Of a stretch of 25,405 nucleotides of DNA, positions 8,638 through 22,334 are shown one piece after another. The stretch lies in NCBI GenBank assembly GCA_046761065.1, contig JBHIFL010000060.1:1-25405 (forward strand). Direction: 5' to 3'. The position numbers and the translations under genes were made by a program. The number at the start of each line of letters is the position of its first letter. The first letter of the stretch is position 1. This stretch comes from Candidatus Heimdallarchaeota archaeon (lineage in GTDB: Archaea > Asgardarchaeota > Wukongarchaeia > Wukongarchaeales > JBHIFL01). The notes beneath the pieces were generated by a model, which had not been told where the DNA came from, made no database searches, and saw nothing but the letters and a program-made list of their open reading frames with translations.

Positions 8638-8903
8638 GGTTCTACTCACCGAATAATACCCCTGAACACAGGAAAGGGGAACCTGATGCATTTCTTTTTG
8701 GAACTATGCCAAGAACATTCTGTCCTCAAAATAGACTTGGTCTAAGTGTTTCGTTAGGAAAGGGTACCATATTTCGCGACTTGAAAGGCAAGGAGCGAAA
8801 AGAAGTGTTGAGTATAAAGGCTTCCATGGCTCATACCATAATTATAAAAGTTAATTTGGAAGGGTCCTGGTTTTGTTTCATGGGCATCTAAAGGGATTTA
8901 AAT

Positions 8904-9311
8904 ATGCCAAAGAGTTTGATGGAAGTTCAGAGTTTGATGGAACGGTAGTGGTTAGCCGGTTTTGCCACTGAGAACCAGAAGAATGCTCCTCATGTTGTTC
9001 CCGTCTTCTTCACCTACAAAGATGGAAACGTGTATGTGCATACGGATCAAAAATCGAGTAAAGTTCGTAATCTCTCGAGAAATCAAAATGTGGCAGTTGC
9101 TGCTTACAACGGACAAGATGCAGTTATTAATTGGGGCAAAGGGCGAATTATTGACAGTAAAGAAGAATTCATTGAAAGAACACAAGATCATATCAATAAG
9201 TATAAGCTAAAACTCGCCAAAGATGGCAAAGACTCACTAAGAATACCTCTATTTAACCAAAGGGTTCTTTGTATTATTGAAGTTACCTCTAAACGAATAA
9301 TATTTTGGTAA
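8904..9311 (+). pseudogene. Pyridoxamine 5'-phosphate oxidase-like (PPOX/FDOR split-barrel) protein with an in-frame TAG at codon 15
   Basis: The frame from ATG 8904 reads MPKSLMEVQSLMER*WLAGFATENQKNAPHVVPVFFTYKDGNVYVHTDQKSSKVRNLSRNQNVAV, the typical AT...G.PH.VPV.F...S.KvrNL..np.V pattern. TAG at 8946-8948. Confidence 0.8.
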
Positions 9312-9536
9312 CTTTTAATATGCTGTCCTTTGTTAGGATTTTTTCCCCAGAATGGGCGAATGCTTCATATTCCATCAAAAAAGGCATTAAATATGTTATG
9401 TGGGCTATGGTCTTATACTTTCCATGTAAATCAGATGTTTACCGCTTAAAATCCGATTCAACCTCAGATAATGAATTAGCAAACTATTTGATGAAAAAAT
9501 ATTGATATATTGCCAATCCTGGAGGCATTCCTTAAA

Positions 9537-14064: not shown

Positions 14065-14437
14065 CAAGGCCCTTGGATGATGGTGTTAGTCTACAACAAG
14101 TTTGAAAACAAGAAAGAATATACAAATATAAGCATTTTAATTAAAATTAATTAATTTATTACTCTCTGATACTTACATGGAACACAAGTATCTTCATAAT
14201 AAATCTAGTTGGCAAGTATGGTTTTTTCAGGTTTCTTTAAATAGGTATTATTTTTTAGCTGTGTTTACTGAGTCTTCATTTGAAGATATCACAAAAGCAT
14301 ATAGGAATAAGAATTCTAAAGACAAATTATCAAAGAACATGCTTTATTACTCTCATCAAATGGTTATAATAGTTTTTGGAGAAAAATCAAAAGGTTACCT
14401 TTTTTTCCTACCAAAGTTATTTTTGTGGGGGAGAAAA

Positions 14438-17044
14438 ATGGCAGACCAATCGCTGCAACCCGGGTCCGAAGGTGAATCACGCGAGATTACCACAACAGAG
14501 ACCCTAGATCAATTATTAGAATCTGGAATTGTGACACTTATCTCAAAGAATGGGAACAGTTATCCGGTTTATACGGGAAATTGGGAAATCATCCCTTCTA
14601 GCCTAGGGAATTTCTTTGAAGAATTAGACTGCTATTTAAGTACAAAAGATATTGGAAACATTACGACAATCAATGTATATTTCGGGAAAAAAAATCAACG
14701 AATCGAATTGGAAGGCTTGCTACCCTATGGCATGATCTTGACCAGGCAACCAGTTCCAGACATAGGAGAATTAATAGCGCTCAATTTTACTCAATATAAT
14801 ATTGATGAAAACCTACTGACAGGTTTAATGAACGACTCAGGTGAGCTCCTTCAGCAAATGATGAGTTTTTTTCCCCAATGTGAGCAAGAGCCGCGAATTG
14901 AGCTCATCAGGTTTTTAGCTCCGGTAATAGTTGATGCCTTCCGAGAAGGCCATTTAAAGAAGCTCGTACATGAAACAACTGGTTCTGAACATTTTTTAAG
15001 AACCCATGAAGTCTGGGGATCTGGAAAACGTCTCCCGTTGAGTATGGGGGGAACTAAATCCTGGGTTTTTAAAACAGTGTATGGTACCGAAGATACTACC
15101 CTTCATTCACTTGTGAGTTGGGTCTTAGATCAATTGGCTCTCTTTATGGACGAATTCAACTCATATATGGCGCAACCAGATCGAACTTCAATCTTGGAAC
15201 GCCTTATAGAATCAGGCTTTGAAGACTTAGACACTTTTACAGGAACCCCTATTGAGTGGATAACACAAGTTGAGGAAGCAATCAAGGATTTTACGTTTAC
15301 AGAACCCCAAGAAAGGAGAGTACGGGACTTTTTCCGAAATGAAATGAAAAGATATGTAGCAAAAGTATCGATTCCTTCAGTGATTCGTGTCTACATGAAA
15401 ATGATTCATGAAAAAAAGGGCACAGACAAAGAATTCGAATTTATTGACACCTTTGGAGAGTATTTGCAACAAGCCCTCATTGAAATCCTTGATCAAGGTG
15501 CGACGGTGCCTGAAGACCCCAGAATATTTGTCCAATCTCAATTCTCGGGTATATTTACTGAATTTCGCAAGCAATATGAGATTTCGAGCCAAGGAGCCTT
15601 TAATTCTCTAGTAACGAAAACCCTTGAATCAATTCCTGAACTCAATCTTCCCCAAATATTTCTTGATTCAGGTTATCTTCGTAACTGCTTAACCAATTCT
15701 TTAACACAATTGAAAAAAAGCGTTAGTAAAAAGATATCTTACCAAAAAGAACAGTTGGCTGAAAAAACGCAAATCTTAGATGAAGAAAAGATAAAAATAG
15801 ATGAAAAACGCCAGATTCTTTCCGAAAAAGAAAATATCCTTCTGGAGAGGAGTGAACACCTACTTTCTGAGAAAGAGCGGATCAATACAAGAGAACGAAA
15901 ATTAATAGATGAGAAAGATAGATGGGATGAAAAAGAAGCGGAATTAAATACTGAAGAAATCAAACTAGAAACCGAAAAACAATCTATAATTCAAGCGCAG
16001 ATGACGTTGAATGAAAGCGTCGCCCGCTTATCCACAGAGAATCAGCAATTAATTGCTAAACAGAAGACATTAACCATAGAGAAAGGGAATGCAGAGGAAC
16101 AACTTCAACAGGCAGCAATCTTGGGGGGGGAGCCATCACACGAGAGAGAATCACTAATAAGGCAAATTCAGGATTATGAAACAGAACTAACAACTGTTTC
16201 TGAACTGAAACAGACCTTGAACAATGGACTTGCTGCTCTTGAAAAGGAACGATCAGTCTTAGATGAACGAAACAGTGTACTGACCGCGAGAGACGACATT
16301 TGGAAAAAAGAAATTGCTAAATTACATGAAGCCCGGGAAAAGTGGTCAAACAATATCCAAGCTCTCAAAAAAGAGAAAGAGGTACTAGAAGAAAATTTTG
16401 CCTCTTTGGAAAAGGATCGAACCCATCTAAATAGAGAACGCACTGCATGGGAGGCAGATCGCAGAGATTTGCTCGAAAAAGTTACCGAATTGGAACAAAA
16501 GAAGAAGACCCTAGAAGATACACAAGCTGCTCTTCATGAAATTATCAAATTCGTGAGACAAAAGATGGAGCAAGAATTCGGTGAGATTATTACTTATGAA
16601 GTAGACGAAATAGCAAATCTTGTCCAGAAGTTTCGAACAAAGGTACCTACTTATTTTGAAGAGGCTTGTAAATCTAGGGGTTCCATAAGGATTGAAGAAG
16701 AGTGGTTCACCGACATTTTCCAAGAAACCCCCCAGAACTACAAACAAACCTGCGAGTTTGAGGAGCTCAAAGAGCATTTGAGGTATTGGGCTTCTCCTGT
16801 GGGAGGGATTTATCCTCAGAGAATAGAGATCTTCTTAACCAAGTCTGGTGGCAGGAAAACTGGGTATGCGCTGTTCCTATTTCAAGATCAACGAAGCCGA
16901 TACTCGCAACAAATTGGTGCGGTTATGGCTAAAGAAATGCCTGAGGGAACCCTCTTATTACGTGATCTACGTGAAATATGCCGGCAACTCAGTGAACACT
17001 ATGATTTACTGATTAAACCGGAAACAGGTGAACAAAATGTCTGA
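14438..17044 (+). CDS. Large hypothetical protein: longin/roadblock-like N-terminus, helical middle, hinged long coiled coil, globular C-terminus
   Basis: 868-codon ORF from ATG 14438 with GGGGAG upstream. Strict heptads at 15734-16552. No transmembrane segment or canonical NTPase motif. Confidence 0.9.
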   Translation: MADQSLQPGSEGESREITTTETLDQLLESGIVTLISKNGNSYPVYTGNWEIIPSSLGNFFEELDCYLSTKDIGNITTINVYFGKKNQRIELEGLLPYGMILTRQPVPDIGELIALNFTQYNIDENLLTGLMNDSGELLQQMMSFFPQCEQEPRIELIRFLAPVIVDAFREGHLKKLVHETTGSEHFLRTHEVWGSGKRLPLSMGGTKSWVFKTVYGTEDTTLHSLVSWVLDQLALFMDEFNSYMAQPDRTSILERLIESGFEDLDTFTGTPIEWITQVEEAIKDFTFTEPQERRVRDFFRNEMKRYVAKVSIPSVIRVYMKMIHEKKGTDKEFEFIDTFGEYLQQALIEILDQGATVPEDPRIFVQSQFSGIFTEFRKQYEISSQGAFNSLVTKTLESIPELNLPQIFLDSGYLRNCLTNSLTQLKKSVSKKISYQKEQLAEKTQILDEEKIKIDEKRQILSEKENILLERSEHLLSEKERINTRERKLIDEKDRWDEKEAELNTEEIKLETEKQSIIQAQMTLNESVARLSTENQQLIAKQKTLTIEKGNAEEQLQQAAILGGEPSHERESLIRQIQDYETELTTVSELKQTLNNGLAALEKERSVLDERNSVLTARDDIWKKEIAKLHEAREKWSNNIQALKKEKEVLEENFASLEKDRTHLNRERTAWEADRRDLLEKVTELEQKKKTLEDTQAALHEIIKFVRQKMEQEFGEIITYEVDEIANLVQKFRTKVPTYFEEACKSRGSIRIEEEWFTDIFQETPQNYKQTCEFEELKEHLRYWASPVGGIYPQRIEIFLTKSGGRKTGYALFLFQDQRSRYSQQIGAVMAKEMPEGTLLLRDLREICRQLSEHYDLLIKPETGEQNV

Positions 17045-19391
17045 TAAACGATTGAGCGGTACCATGGCATTGCCAGGGGTAAGTGATCTTAAAGCAATTC
17101 AACTGCTTCAGACCTATCCACCTTGGATGGATCAAATCTGGAAGAGTAAGACACTCCCTGCAGGGTTAATCCTTGCTCTCTCTCAAACTGCGAACATTCC
17201 TAGCGATTTGGTCGAGATAATCCACTCCTACGGCTTAAAAGCCATTGAATTCATAAAAGCATATTACAAATTGATGATACGGATTCAAACAGGGGGCGAC
17301 CTGGAAATTGCGAGGGAAGAATTACGCGATTTATGGAATCGTTATCGCAATCAAATACCTATCGCCCACTTCTTCGCAAAAAGTTTGAATACCACCATCA
17401 AACAAGTCCTTTTAGGTTTAGACCGAAAAGAGAAATCAATTACTCGATCTAAAGACCGAAAAGAAAAACTCCTTGAATACCAGATCCTTCCAACTTATTT
17501 AGAGACCACAACACAGGTTCTAACACCTTGGGTCGAGATGGAAAATTCCGTTTCAACAAAGGTAATCGAACAGGAAAAGGCCGAAGGAATTCCATCGGAT
17601 GTCTTCTCCTACAGATTGGAGATCCTTGAAACTTTAACCACGGGTTCCAGCGAACTACCTGAAACATATCCCAAATTACTTAAAATTACCAACGAAAGGC
17701 TTCAAAAATGGTGCGAGAAAGGTTTTCTGAAGAAAGCACTTTTAGAAATTACTGGATTCGAAGATGTTCTTGCACATTTGCTCAAAGAATCAGGCCTTAC
17801 ATACTCCCGTCTAACCGAACTCTTAGCTGCCGCAAAAGATCTTGAACAAATGAGACCATATTTAGACATTCTTCGAGTAATGGAGGCGGTGGAAGAGCGA
17901 TTTAGGCCAAGATTTAGTCAGATTTCCATTGAGATTCAACTTAAGATGTTTCTCAAAAACGAACTCACAGCAGAGGACCTAACCTGGTTGAAAGGTCTCC
18001 TGTTTGAAGGGCAATCCAGTGAAGCTAGAATGCATCGCCTGCGATTAACTGATCAAGAAGTAATTGATAAGCTCGTGGAATATTGGAAGATAAAACAAAC
18101 CATCAGAGATCAATTTCGTATAGGGGATGCGAAATCCGAAGAAGATACGGCTCTCACTGAGAAATTTGCAGGGAAGATTTTAAATTTCGTAGTCTATAGT
18201 CCTTTAAGCACATTAAAACTCTTCACTGAATTATATGATTGGATAATCGTTCATGTTTCCGATATTGGCATAGAAATTCGAGCCATGAGGGACCAGTATC
18301 GGCGCATTATGCAAATTGCCAAAGCAATTGGAGAACTTGTAAAAGAGATCCAATTAGTTTGTACAGATATGGACTCGGAACAAATCCGAGCCCTCCTTCA
18401 TTCAGTATTTATGGATGAACAATATGTAGAAGTTCTACAAAAGATCCCCTCCACCCCATCCGCGCTGGCTCGAACAACCTTTCAGGAACATGGCCTGTTC
18501 AAGACCTATCCAAATTTAATAGCACATAATGGTTGGTGGCCCCTTGCATTAGAAACTTTGATTCAATTTGAAGAAAAAGTCAGACAAATTGGAACCGCAC
18601 GTCTTGTGGAAAAAAAGGACGAGTTTGATCTTGAACAAGCAAATATAAGCGTTGCTTCAGCTTTAATTAAACAGTTATCAAGTATTAGCGCCCAAGCTTT
18701 GTCCAAGTCTCATCAGACCACTATATTGCCTGGCTATGATACTGATTTTTCTATAAGAAAAGCTTTAAACCCTTTGGTGGAAATTGAACGAAGAACTCGG
18801 GCTAATCCGCGAGAAGTTTTACTTCAGGTATTAAATGCGGAAGTACCTATGCCTATGGGGAATCAAACTACCAAGCAAATCCTGGTAAGTGACATATTTC
18901 AGGATGATCTCGAGAAATATGAAACCTTGATGCAAGGTATTAAACCACAGACCCATATTCTTGATTTATGCGACTACTTTTCTTATGAAATTGTGAGTGC
19001 CTTAATTAGTAATATGCTGCCTCATTATGAAAGAATGGGGCTAGAGAACACTCTGGAGAATATCAGCGACGAATACGTCTCACTTCTGCGTCAAATGAGA
19101 AATTCTCTTAGGAAATCTGGAAGCCGAGATGAATGGGGGAAAATGATGACAAGTTTAATGCGTTTTTCAAAGAGTGTTGAACGCATCCTTGACAACACAC
19201 AGCAGTATCGGAATACATCTCTTACCCAACTAGCAAACTACATCCTCCAGCCGAGTAAATTTCTGCAAGGTGCCTTAAAAGATGTAGGATTCGGACGTAA
19301 GGGGATTATTCGTGAGTCCATCGAAAAAACTCTTAAGGAAGTAATGACCCTCCAGCGTCTCTTGAGACATCTTCGCTTAGCAACTATGTGA
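17037..19391 (+). CDS. Large hypothetical all-alpha protein
   Basis: ~784-aa ORF whose start overlaps the previous stop (ATGTCTGA), implying translational coupling. L/E/K/I-rich amphipathic helices, no transmembrane segment. Confidence 0.9.
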   Translation: MSDKRLSGTMALPGVSDLKAIQLLQTYPPWMDQIWKSKTLPAGLILALSQTANIPSDLVEIIHSYGLKAIEFIKAYYKLMIRIQTGGDLEIAREELRDLWNRYRNQIPIAHFFAKSLNTTIKQVLLGLDRKEKSITRSKDRKEKLLEYQILPTYLETTTQVLTPWVEMENSVSTKVIEQEKAEGIPSDVFSYRLEILETLTTGSSELPETYPKLLKITNERLQKWCEKGFLKKALLEITGFEDVLAHLLKESGLTYSRLTELLAAAKDLEQMRPYLDILRVMEAVEERFRPRFSQISIEIQLKMFLKNELTAEDLTWLKGLLFEGQSSEARMHRLRLTDQEVIDKLVEYWKIKQTIRDQFRIGDAKSEEDTALTEKFAGKILNFVVYSPLSTLKLFTELYDWIIVHVSDIGIEIRAMRDQYRRIMQIAKAIGELVKEIQLVCTDMDSEQIRALLHSVFMDEQYVEVLQKIPSTPSALARTTFQEHGLFKTYPNLIAHNGWWPLALETLIQFEEKVRQIGTARLVEKKDEFDLEQANISVASALIKQLSSISAQALSKSHQTTILPGYDTDFSIRKALNPLVEIERRTRANPREVLLQVLNAEVPMPMGNQTTKQILVSDIFQDDLEKYETLMQGIKPQTHILDLCDYFSYEIVSALISNMLPHYERMGLENTLENISDEYVSLLRQMRNSLRKSGSRDEWGKMMTSLMRFSKSVERILDNTQQYRNTSLTQLANYILQPSKFLQGALKDVGFGRKGIIRESIEKTLKEVMTLQRLLRHLRLATM

Positions 19392-19419
19392 TGGGACCTC
19401 AAAAGGGAAATAGTGTCGA

Positions 19420-19447
19420 TTTTTTTAATAACCTGGCAAGCCTTTTT
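19420..19447 (+). terminator. Possible archaeal oligo-T terminator(s)
   Basis: T7 and T5 runs 30-55 nt after the stop at 19391. Confidence 0.35.
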
Positions 19448-19741
19448 GGATAATATGAATGTAAATCAGAAACCTTTAAAATTTTTCCCAAACAATGAAA
19501 GGCATTCATTTTTTACCATACATATGAAAAAAAGAATGTAGTTTTGACTTAAGATATTACTTACCATTCTTTGCATAAATAATACTAAAAGAACGAAATT
19601 TAATTAATAAAATTATTGCTTAATATTAAATAATATATTATTATGTAATAAATTAAATCTGTTAACTCTTATTTTCACTAATGATGATGAGCCACAAAAG
19701 GTAAAAGTATTGAATTGAAAAATAGTATGAGGGGTAATGTT

Positions 19742-21241
19742 GTGACACAGCCAAACGAACTTCAAAGGGTTAAGAAACAAGTTCTGGCACAAATAAAAAG
19801 CGTTGCAATGGAAATTGAGGACAACATCTTACGCCAAGAAACTGACCGGGCATTAAAGAGCTTGGAAAACTTCGAAGGAGATCCAGACCAATTTCTCACC
19901 GATGCAAACGAGATTCTAGGCAATCTAGTTCGACTGCTTGGCGAATACGATAAAAGACGCAGCGACCTGCGGGCCCTCTATGCGGATCTTGACGAGATCC
20001 AACAATCAGCAGCGACACCAGAGGGGCTTGTGGAAATGTTAGGTTGTTTAGATTATCCAGAGGCTAGATACGCTGCAATAGAACTCATTCAGGCCACATC
20101 GCTTCTAGCGCAACTATCGCGAGGTGTGTTTGTTGGAGAGTATGCCGAGTGGATCCGGGAACAGGCACGGATGGCTCTCCGAGATCTTCTAGGCACAGGA
20201 AAAGGACGCTTTCAAGCTGATATTGCAACTCTATATGGTCTAGGAGCATCCAAGATTCTCCGTGCGATCAGACGTGATCCCACAGGAGGCGAACTAAGAC
20301 AAATGATACAAGAAGAGCAAATTAATTACTCAGCGATAGTATCAGTTGCAAAACGAATAGTGGTCGGCCTCCAACAGGAAATCCTCATGCCACTCTTTCA
20401 GGAGACTGAGCGTGAAATGAGGGAGGGGCTGCTCGCCTACATTGTGCCCCCCGAGGAAAGACGTTTGGACGATACTTTAATTAGGAAATTGGCCAAATAT
20501 GTGGATCCTGAGCTTGTCATCCGATCCAGGTTGGCAACCCCATTCGAAATAACACTAAAACGGAAATCTGTCCCCCTCTTCGCAAATTTTTTAAAGCTTT
20601 CTGACGATCTTGCGAGACTGCTCAGCCTTTTCCCAACACATTTGCACCAAGCCGATCGAAAAACCATAAGCAAAACCATCAATATGATTAGAACCACAGT
20701 TAAAGAACTCCACGAGACAAGTGCTTTGCGAGATCTCAGTGATCTTAAAGATGAAGAAGAGACAGAACGGCGCTTCTTACTTCTCCTTCTACGAAAGGAA
20801 TTCCTCTCCGACTTAAGAAAACGAATCAGTTGGGTTTACGGACAAGTTTCAGAAGAGGCACCTCTCCCAACAGAAGTACGCAAGTTCTTTGAACGGGAAA
20901 TTGTTTCCTATGTGGAAGATTTCGCACAAACTGTAACTGATCTTTCAATTGAAGACCTCCAAGCAAACCTTTCAGCATGGCGTAGATGGTTGCACCGTAT
21001 TGAAGTTCAATTTAATATCTCAGAGATCCAGATGCGCCCATTTTTGAGATTTGCGCCAGACAACTTCATTGCAATGGAAAGGGTCAAATTACACCCAAAG
21101 CATCTTATGAAGGTCAATTCTATTCTGAAACGGCGAAAACGCCTAGCGGCAATAGCACGAAGGGGTAAAACGGCTGAGAACGCCTTAACCAGTTTAGAGG
21201 CATTATTTGCTTATTTAGAAAAACGGCTGAGAACACCTTAA
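19742..21241 (+). CDS. Hypothetical all-alpha protein, C-terminus affected by a tandem duplication
   Basis: ~500-aa ORF. GAGGGGT upstream favours GTG 19742. Preceded by a very AT-rich ~320 bp spacer. Confidence 0.88.
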   Translation: MTQPNELQRVKKQVLAQIKSVAMEIEDNILRQETDRALKSLENFEGDPDQFLTDANEILGNLVRLLGEYDKRRSDLRALYADLDEIQQSAATPEGLVEMLGCLDYPEARYAAIELIQATSLLAQLSRGVFVGEYAEWIREQARMALRDLLGTGKGRFQADIATLYGLGASKILRAIRRDPTGGELRQMIQEEQINYSAIVSVAKRIVVGLQQEILMPLFQETEREMREGLLAYIVPPEERRLDDTLIRKLAKYVDPELVIRSRLATPFEITLKRKSVPLFANFLKLSDDLARLLSLFPTHLHQADRKTISKTINMIRTTVKELHETSALRDLSDLKDEEETERRFLLLLLRKEFLSDLRKRISWVYGQVSEEAPLPTEVRKFFEREIVSYVEDFAQTVTDLSIEDLQANLSAWRRWLHRIEVQFNISEIQMRPFLRFAPDNFIAMERVKLHPKHLMKVNSILKRRKRLAAIARRGKTAENALTSLEALFAYLEKRLRTP

Positions 21242-21272
21242 CCAGTTTAGAGGCATTAATTACTTATTTAAA
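21167..21272 (+). repeat. 53-bp tandem duplication (2 copies, 4 mismatches)
   Basis: AAAACGGCTGAGAACGCCTTAACCAGTTTAGAGGCATTATTTGCTTATTTAGA versus AAAACGGCTGAGAACACCTTAACCAGTTTAGAGGCATTAATTACTTATTTAAA. Confidence 0.97.
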
Positions 21273-21283
21273 AGTAAAGAAAA

Positions 21284-21349
21284 TTGATCACACGGAGATC
21301 AACTTCTTTGAAAGATGTTATAACATCATTCAGGATGTAACCCCACACC
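21284..21349 (-). ncRNA. Putative TnpB right-end / omega-RNA scaffold remnant
   Basis: Three consecutive inverted repeats overlap and follow the tnpB 3' end: GGTGTGGGGTTACATCC, the palindrome GATGTTATAACATC, and TTGATC-N7-GATCAA. Confidence 0.5.
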
Positions 21350-21998
21350 TTCTATCCCATCCGTATTGAACGCTTTTGGGAGTGCTTTTTTTAAGGGTGT
21401 TATAGGCCCTATTAACATCAGTAATGATCAGGTTGCCTTTTGCAGATTTGAATAATCTTCGGTTCTTCTTTTGCCCCAGATAGATCTTTTTATGTTTGAT
21501 GGGAGGGCTAATCTAAGAAACTACACTTGGATGTGTGACTTTATTCTTGCAAGAGAATATAAATTCCTTTTTCTACCGCTTTACATTCTATCTACTGGAT
21601 CAGCTTAGAGAAAGGGAACTAACCACAACCCTGGTTGGTTTTACATCCCATATTTGCGTGTTGCTTCCATTCTGTATTATAACTAATCACCAGTGTGTCC
21701 ACATCACGTCATGTTGCCCATACAAGTCCACAACCAATCAACTGACCTTATGAAAGTAGTCACGGAGCTTGTGATTCTGCTTAACAGTTAATTCTTTGAG
21801 CTTCATGCCCGTTTTAATCTCTTGATGATCATAGATCTGCTGCAACCGCGCCTGCTCTTTGTTGTAAAATTGATTGATTGACTTGACCACTCTGCCCAGT
21901 ATAACAATCGGTTTTACCCCGAAGTTATTGACTAACATAACGAGACTGTAGACCCCATATATTGCGACAGCGCCCTTTTCCATTTTAAAGACCTTCAA
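21326..21998 (-). mobile_element. tnpB: IS200/IS605-family TnpB pseudogene, 5'-truncated
   Basis: Across frameshifts and stops: KPIVILGRVVKSINQFYNK, HKLRDYFHKVS, LVISYNTEWKQHANMG, FPFSKLIQ*IECKAVEKGI, SHTSKCSFLD, RRLFKSAKGNLIITDVNRAYN, DGIEGVGLHP. Confidence 0.92.
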
Positions 21999-22001
21999 CA
22001 G

Positions 22002-22315
22002 AAATTATTGAAAGCAACCACCATCCAAGGATGACGATATATTCAAGTTCTCGCCCCCTATCCTACTGGTTGGCGCATTCCAACTTCAAAATCGGTAAAA
22101 ATGGCTAAATTTGCAGTAAAAAGAGGAATCTGGCCACTTTACGCAAATGAATGTGGAAAATTTACATTAAACGTCATACTGGAAAAAAAACACGACCTGT
22201 ACAAGAGTATTTAGCAGATCAAGGCAGATTTAACCATCTAATGACTGATTTTATCCGAGAAATTCAAAAACAGACAGATGCGATATAGGGCATCGTGTTC
22301 CAGAGATATGAGTGA
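22002..22315 (+). pseudogene. porB: 3' relic of pyruvate/2-oxoacid:ferredoxin oxidoreductase beta subunit
   Basis: Reads KLLKATTIQG*RYIQVLAPYPTGW...AKFAVKRGIWPLY...(frameshift at A run)RPVQEYLADQGRFNHL...IREIQKQTD. Confidence 0.88.
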
Positions 22316-22334
22316 GAGAGATAATTTGCTCGTT

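Follow-up and report, generated by a model that had tools for sequence, protein, structure and literature searches.

SMC, Rad50 and ASRP proteins share an architecture in which N- and C-terminal globular parts are joined by two coiled-coil arms of about the same length that meet at a central break, and in SMC systems a partner gene lies directly downstream. Golgins and the CATCHR complexes (exocyst, COG, GARP and Dsl1) offer a second precedent, that of a long coiled-coil protein accompanied by large all-helical proteins, soluble and non-enzymatic. The present work concerns a locus of a Candidatus Heimdallarchaeota archaeon that may recall both in its layout. The window, i.e. the whole stretch of 25,405 nucleotides that was analysed, is contig C60 of a metagenome-assembled genome (MAG G000; 4.4 Mb in 234 contigs, 91% complete, 8% contaminated), and its listing of open reading frames (ORFs) shows three co-oriented plus-strand ORFs occupying positions 14438-21241, here named g1, g2 and g3. 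The product of g1 would have the globular ends, two arms and central break of the SMC-type proteins, its candidate partner gene g2 follows directly downstream, and the three products taken together recall the golgin and CATCHR combination. We propose that g1 and g2 constitute a two-gene operon of one narrow Heimdall-group lineage that encodes a non-enzymatic structural pair, a reading to which we assign a probability of roughly 40%. The assembly may serve as a cytoskeletal scaffold, a tether or an organiser, and g3 would be a separately transcribed helical protein and no obligate subunit of it.

The bond between g1 and g2 is seen at their junction. In the window the ATG of g2 overlaps the stop codon of g1 by 8 nucleotides, as the initial annotation of this DNA had noted, and g2 is present at all seven loci that hold the 3' end of g1. 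At these seven junctions the two genes either overlap by 8 or 11 nucleotides or are set apart by a 1-nucleotide gap, and a ribosome-binding site (AGGTGA or GGAGGT) stands upstream of the g2 start in every case. The junction has been preserved despite saturated synonymous sites (dS, the synonymous divergence, is above 1.7 to the relative locus L004), which argues for selected co-translation of g1 and g2. We regard the conserved junction as good evidence for co-translation and as moderate evidence for physical partnership; judged from this comparison, co-translation of the two as partners is very probable, and a coupled structural pair is plausible. g2 would in that case be a stoichiometric binding partner of g1. 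The promoter of the operon presumably lies in the AT-rich spacer that precedes g1.

The same junction bears on the alternative that g1, g2 and g3 are functionally unrelated, lineage-specific proteins, of which g1 and g2 share a transcript and form no stable complex. None of the tools gave evidence of binding, no co-varying context extends beyond one clade, and adjacency conserved between closely related genomes says little in itself, all of which agrees with this view; the stop/start overlap and the ribosome-binding site, kept to L004 at the synonymous divergence given above, speak against it, and we hold it to be rather unlikely.

The architecture of g1 was delimited on an alignment of four full-length sequences (the window protein and the homologues P0020, P0021 and P0022). 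The N-terminal region is the best conserved part, being 58% identical to the most distant homologue as compared with 53% for the full protein, and it is followed by a heptad-rich rod and a conserved C-terminal domain. In the window protein the rod contains one proline, in a Gly-Gly-Glu-Pro break that sits 6-9 residues off the rod midpoint (572.5). Rod length is 281 residues in three of the sequences and 491 in P0022, where the rod has its midpoint at 675.5 and prolines at 666 and 675; in the MAFFT alignment the ~210 additional residues of P0022 are split 105 + 105 on either side of the hinge. A break that stays central in rods of both lengths favours an antiparallel hairpin, since a parallel dimer does not require equal arms. 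We therefore think it probable, from the alignment, that the rod folds back over roughly 20 nm, so that the N- and C-terminal parts come to lie side by side. The 431-residue N-terminal region and the 156-residue C-terminal domain would then meet as one head, and g1 would have the shape of SMC or Rad50 without any ATPase.

The principal alternative for g1 itself is an extended, parallel dimeric coiled coil with a central linker, comparable to intermediate filament proteins, crescentin or golgins, that would hold head and tail apart at its two ends and form filaments or act as a long tether, with g2 as its partner or regulator. The head-rod-tail layout and a rod of ~281 residues divided by a central linker suit such a protein, and the weak coiled-coil-type matches of g1 include HmpF, CRWN_N and ADIP. 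A parallel rod, however, is not required to keep its break central as it grows from 281 to 491 residues, and the N-terminal region of g1 is large and well conserved whereas the heads of intermediate filament proteins are disordered. We consider the parallel dimer unlikely on balance. The length of the rod, measured by electron microscopy, would be a simple physical discriminator between the hairpin and the extended architecture.

Several points weigh against the proposed hairpin-and-partner model. The hairpin relies on just two rod length classes, P0020 and P0021 have a weak hinge (glycine is present, proline is not), and P0022 carries another proline, at residue 731. A central break would also be expected of a parallel dimer with a central linker. 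No AlphaFold2 (AF2) fold argues for a head composed of the N- and C-terminal parts, as the head could not be modelled; co-folding of residues 1-470 with residues 680-868, by which the composite head was tested, returned a score of 0.01, which gives no verdict and was weighed neither way. The well conserved head may yet have an enzymatic or nucleotide-binding role that relies on unrecognised motifs. As for g2, partners encoded in one operon need not bind each other.

The features on which this account is based are collected below.

Table 1. Positions of the three genes and of their parts, junctions and flanking elements in the window.
Feature	Position	Strand	Description
AT-rich spacer before g1	14065..14437	+	373 nt, 27.9% GC (42% for the window)
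g1	14438..17044	+	868 aa; head, coiled-coil rod and tail
g1 N-terminal globular region (head)	14438..15730	+	residues 1-431; best conserved part
g1 coiled-coil rod	15731..16573	+	residues 432-712, 281 aa, heptad-rich; arms of ~131 and ~146 aa
g1 central helix break, Gly-Gly-Glu-Pro	16124..16135	+	residues 563-566; sole Pro of the rod
g1 C-terminal conserved domain (tail)	16574..17041	+	residues 713-868, 156 aa; delimited by alignment
Coupling junction	17026..17044	+	ribosome-binding site AGGTGA 17026-17031 in g1 3' end; g2 ATG 17037; g1 stop 17042-17044
g2	17037..19391	+	784 aa; all-helical
AT-rich g2-g3 spacer	19392..19741	+	350 nt, 24.6% GC (42% for the window)
g3	19742..21241	+	499 aa; helical, Arg/Leu-rich
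53-nt tandem duplication	21167..21272	+	copies 92% identical; spans the g3 stop codon; abuts the TnpB remnant

By architecture alone, the SMC/Rad50-like hairpin rod is the nearest known kind to g1; g1 is, however, no member of it, since it fails on the defining ATPase features. Unlike SMC and Rad50, it has no Walker A, no Walker B/D-loop context and no ABC signature: a regular-expression scan of g1 found no GxxxxGK[ST] Walker A, the head alignment has no P-loop-like conserved block, and no [LFY]SGG (ABC signature LSGG) occurs in any part of the protein. The N-terminal region is far larger than half an ABC head of SMC or Rad50. The putative hinge of g1 is a short turn, whereas that of SMC and Rad50 is a dimerisation domain or a zinc hook, and g2, unlike the accessory subunits of SMC, matches no kleisin or kite family. 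Hidden Markov models (HMMs) of the group scored far below their cut-offs on g1 (TIGR02168 for SMC, 17.9 bits against 567; NF045487 for ASRP, 15.8 against 300; TIGR02169, 8.9 against 729), and all of these SMC-type alignments fall inside residues 421-736, the rod. The second precedent fares no better. No exocyst, COG, GARP, Dsl1 or golgin (GRIP/GRAB) family of Pfam was matched, at E-values up to 1 with the full-length proteins and up to 10 with eight pieces; unlike the setting of golgins and CATCHR complexes, the neighbourhood in the window has no small GTPase; and the family of g1-g3 is found in one small lineage and not across the Asgard archaea, which sets it apart from kin of the eukaryotic tethers. 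The links to golgin/CATCHR tethers and to SMC with accessory subunits that the initial annotation had suggested are thus unsupported at the level of sequence, neither being backed by a family model above noise or above cut-off. A stronger form of our proposal is that g1 and g2, possibly with a facultative g3, make up a new ATPase-free, SMC-shaped hairpin-rod assembly, a new device for cytoskeletal, tethering or chromosome/membrane-organising tasks in which the g1 head or g2 would have unseen folds; we regard this as doubtful.

By sequence, none of the three proteins maps to a known family. Searches of Pfam, NCBIfam, PADLOC and PHROGs with g1, g2 and g3 gave coiled-coil-type or chance matches only, far below cut-offs, as did a Pfam search with eight domain-sized pieces at E-values up to 10, and profile searches of the PDB gave nothing under an E-value of 0.05. 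A motif scan of the three proteins found no conserved Walker A, ABC signature, GTPase, metal or nuclease motif. Residues ~20-120 of g1 alternate helix and strand in a roadblock- or longin-like manner, as judged by eye on a low-confidence AF2 model (predicted local distance difference test, pLDDT, below 50). Roadblock/LC7 was tried as an identity for g1 and rejected at the sequence level: a PF03259 search of G000 returned 12 genes, g1 not being one of them, and hhalign comparison of g1 residues 1-135, 1-260 and 740-868 with ten Roadblock proteins of the same genome gave probabilities below 1%. There was likewise no DENN or longin Pfam match in g1.

Structure prediction failed because the alignments are shallow. 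The AF2 model of the g1 head (4-row alignment) has a mean pLDDT of 48.9, residues 1-253 being below 50, and that of g2 (12 rows) has a mean pLDDT of 41.4 and a predicted template-modelling score (pTM) of 0.24, and is all-helical with ~39 helices; for g3, the model supplied by the ESM Atlas reaches a pLDDT of 0.43. The best Foldseek matches in the PDB had E-values of 0.38 for the g1 head model and of 0.93, with a template-modelling score below 0.11, for the g2 model. VIA-align with the g1 head gave a best Z of 8.4 on a helical sub-bundle, which is inside the noise range for helical models; these fold searches of the head covered residues ~245-430. In the ESM Atlas the best lead for the g1 head was DUF2357 (0.89, 163 shared features), under the trust line, and there was none for g3. 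The most conserved core of g2 lies at about residues 339-520; no internal repeats were detected in g2 or g3.

Comparison with the homologues corrected the start of each gene, which is one practical yield of this work, the other being that the g1-g2 pair, not the trio, is the unit worth expressing. For g1, the methionine at 14438 is the start in all homologues (P0020, P0021 and P0022 aligned), although the longest ORF opens at 14177; the recorded gene call uses this in-frame ATG at 14177 and, at 955 residues, is 87 codons too long. The conserved start of g2 is the ATG at 17037, inside ATGTCTGA. Its recorded call, of 775 residues, is 9 codons too short and conceals the conserved stop/start overlap (17037-17063). 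The start of g3 is a GTG at 19742, an ATG taking its place in the relative L025, with GAGGGG 8 nucleotides upstream, which makes the protein 499 and not 508 residues long.

With these starts the initial annotation stands on its main descriptive points: the window has three co-oriented, intact ORFs of 868, 784 and 499 codons, the spacers in front of g1 and g3 are long and AT-rich, and the products have neither a recognisable catalytic motif in the motif scan nor a transmembrane segment (maximum Kyte-Doolittle 19-residue means of 0.89-1.23), in keeping with soluble proteins of helical or coiled-coil type. That the frames are open because they are genuine genes is borne out by substitution rates. 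Pairwise Nei-Gojobori ratios of nonsynonymous to synonymous divergence (dN/dS) against the relatives are 0.20-0.23 for g1, 0.05-0.18 for g2 and 0.09-0.14 for g3, in comparison with 0.04-0.12 for the neighbouring pyruvate kinase and 0.16-0.23 for the EamA transporter. g1, g2 and g3 are real, intact genes under purifying selection, with dN/dS like that of their housekeeping neighbours. With respect to the most distant lineage dN is 0.35 for g1, 0.15 for g2, 0.24 for g3 and 0.20 for pyruvate kinase; neither g2 nor g3 evolves rapidly, and g1 is the faster one. As dN of g2 and g3 is near that of pyruvate kinase, rapid divergence is unlikely to be the only reason why relatives are missing elsewhere. 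What look like frameshifts in g1 and g3 of L025 are scaffold gaps (NN), not decay. In another relative (L002) the g3 call is split into 444 and 47 residues by the loss of one base close to the 3' end of the gene (L002:13925-13940), which could be an assembly error or genuine decay.

Relatives at 59-89% identity occur in independent assemblies, 3-8 per protein in word-indexed searches of 5.8 billion clusters. The named ones belong to MAGs labelled Candidatus Hodarchaeota or Heimdallarchaeota, and every product is annotated as 'hypothetical protein'; one short partial relative of g2 is labelled Aenigmarchaeota instead. Profiles of g1, g2 and g3 searched against 400 genomes of the phylum found a real match in G000 only and none in the 399 others, and both other genomes of the same order were without a match to any of the three. 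The g2 profile gave marginal matches of ~90-125 residues (E-values of about 2-5e-4) in three further genomes of the 400. G000 has no paralogues of the three genes in profile searches, and paralogy between g1, g2 and g3 was considered and rejected, profile comparison giving probabilities below 2%. An exhaustive HMMER search of 1.84 billion representatives with the g2 profile recovered no more than the 50% cluster of g2 itself plus one fragment, a metagenome scan added 3 loci and no more, and neither the g1 head nor g3 had a match in pattern scans of 185,579 GTDB species genomes. By the measure of these searches g1, g2 and g3 are family-level orphans confined to one narrow Heimdall-group Asgard lineage. 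They are constrained and unlike anything catalogued, yet they belong to one small clade and showed no link in sequence, or in any usable structure, to eukaryotic proteins, so that for now they have little bearing on eukaryogenesis.

The place of g3 has to be judged by synteny, which separates it from the other two genes. g1 and g2 adjoin at all seven junction loci, whereas g3 directly follows g2, at a spacing of ~340-350 nucleotides, only in the clade of ~85% identity (the window and four close relatives). The lineage at 72% identity has a minus-strand M24 peptidase gene after g2 and a minus-strand FAD-binding gene before g3. In the lineage at 65% (L003) g2 and g3 are parted by a metabolic block of ~9 kb with seven genes, of which six run on the opposite strand; here too a minus-strand M24 peptidase gene comes after g2. 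In that lineage the contigs L003 and L004 (L003:1-885 and L004:13224-14489, both of JGI sample 3300009034) break within g2, of which they carry residues 1-424 and 488-782; they probably adjoin in a single genome, and joining them gives the order g1-g2, seven genes (M24 peptidase, GlmS-like and others) and then g3. Since g3 is separated in the 72% and 65% lineages, its adjacency in the window is probably derived; in the window clade the genes in between would have been lost or moved elsewhere, which placed g3 beside g2.

The spacer between g2 and g3 is conserved among close relatives, most strongly over its final ~75 nucleotides. This conservation makes it probable that a promoter and a 5' untranslated region belonging to g3 lie there, and separate transcription, which the initial annotation had allowed for, is very probable. 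The same annotation had g1, g2 and g3 as subunits of one soluble three-subunit scaffold or tethering complex. The part of that proposal that stays plausible is the coupled, helical and coiled-coil g1-g2 pair; membership of g3 is weakened. In its favour, the window and four close relatives have the three genes adjacent on the same strand, their narrow phyletic ranges are identical, and even in the 65% lineage g3 keeps the strand of g2 ~9 kb downstream. The opposite-strand metabolic genes between g2 and g3 in two lineages, the conserved upstream region of g3 and the absence of any sequence relation between g1, g2 and g3 count against a trio, which we find improbable. By its gene order g3 is probably a loosely linked neighbour and no constant partner of the g1-g2 pair.

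The 3' end of g3 has features of its own. A basic KRRKRL patch lies close to the C-terminus; the tail also has a lone Walker-A-like string, without conservation in relatives. The 53-nucleotide length of the tandem duplication is not divisible by 3, so its second copy is read out of frame and provides a new six-residue C-terminal tail that the relatives do not share. The duplication looks like an insertion by-product and not like a diversity-generating repeat.

The surroundings of g1-g3 are conserved. Genes for pyruvate kinase, a methyltransferase-like protein and an alpha/beta hydrolase lie upstream and EamA lies downstream, and the pyruvate kinase-methyltransferase-hydrolase context is the same in lineages of 59-85% identity, which implies vertical inheritance and argues against a defence island or a mobile element. 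That g1-g3 are a defence or mobile-element module of a new type, to which IS605/TnpB copies or remnants near the locus in the window and relatives and a weak coiled-coil similarity to the JetC, DndD and PbeC models might point, is very improbable in view of this context, of substitution rates like those of housekeeping neighbours and of the lack of nuclease or NTPase motifs, and the defence link of the initial annotation is likewise unsupported: in PADLOC-DB 2.0 the g1 matches lie in the coiled-coil region only (E-values of 0.011-0.4) and are coiled-coil noise, g2 and g3 have none, and PHROGs did no better. The neighbours with family matches are intact, contrary to the remark that many neighbouring genes are decaying.

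The clear wreck in the window is what is left of an IS605-type TnpB gene on the minus strand, truncated and with a broken frame (matches at 21305-21956, protein matches covering residues 191-405). It lies in the ~1.06 kb between g3 and EamA (21273-22334), where close relatives have a spacer of ~62 nucleotides, and its DNA is 78% identical to part of an intact 410-residue copy in a relative (L006). Rfam gave no match over the whole window. Sigma-70 promoter and terminator sites were no commoner than in shuffled sequence, in a scan that is unsuited to archaea. Elsewhere in the window, ~870 nucleotides (8638-9509) between the second class-III aminotransferase gene and a PALP-family gene contain short ORFs only; the corresponding spacer is ~270 nucleotides in L002, and the stretch may be a further insertion or a decayed gene.

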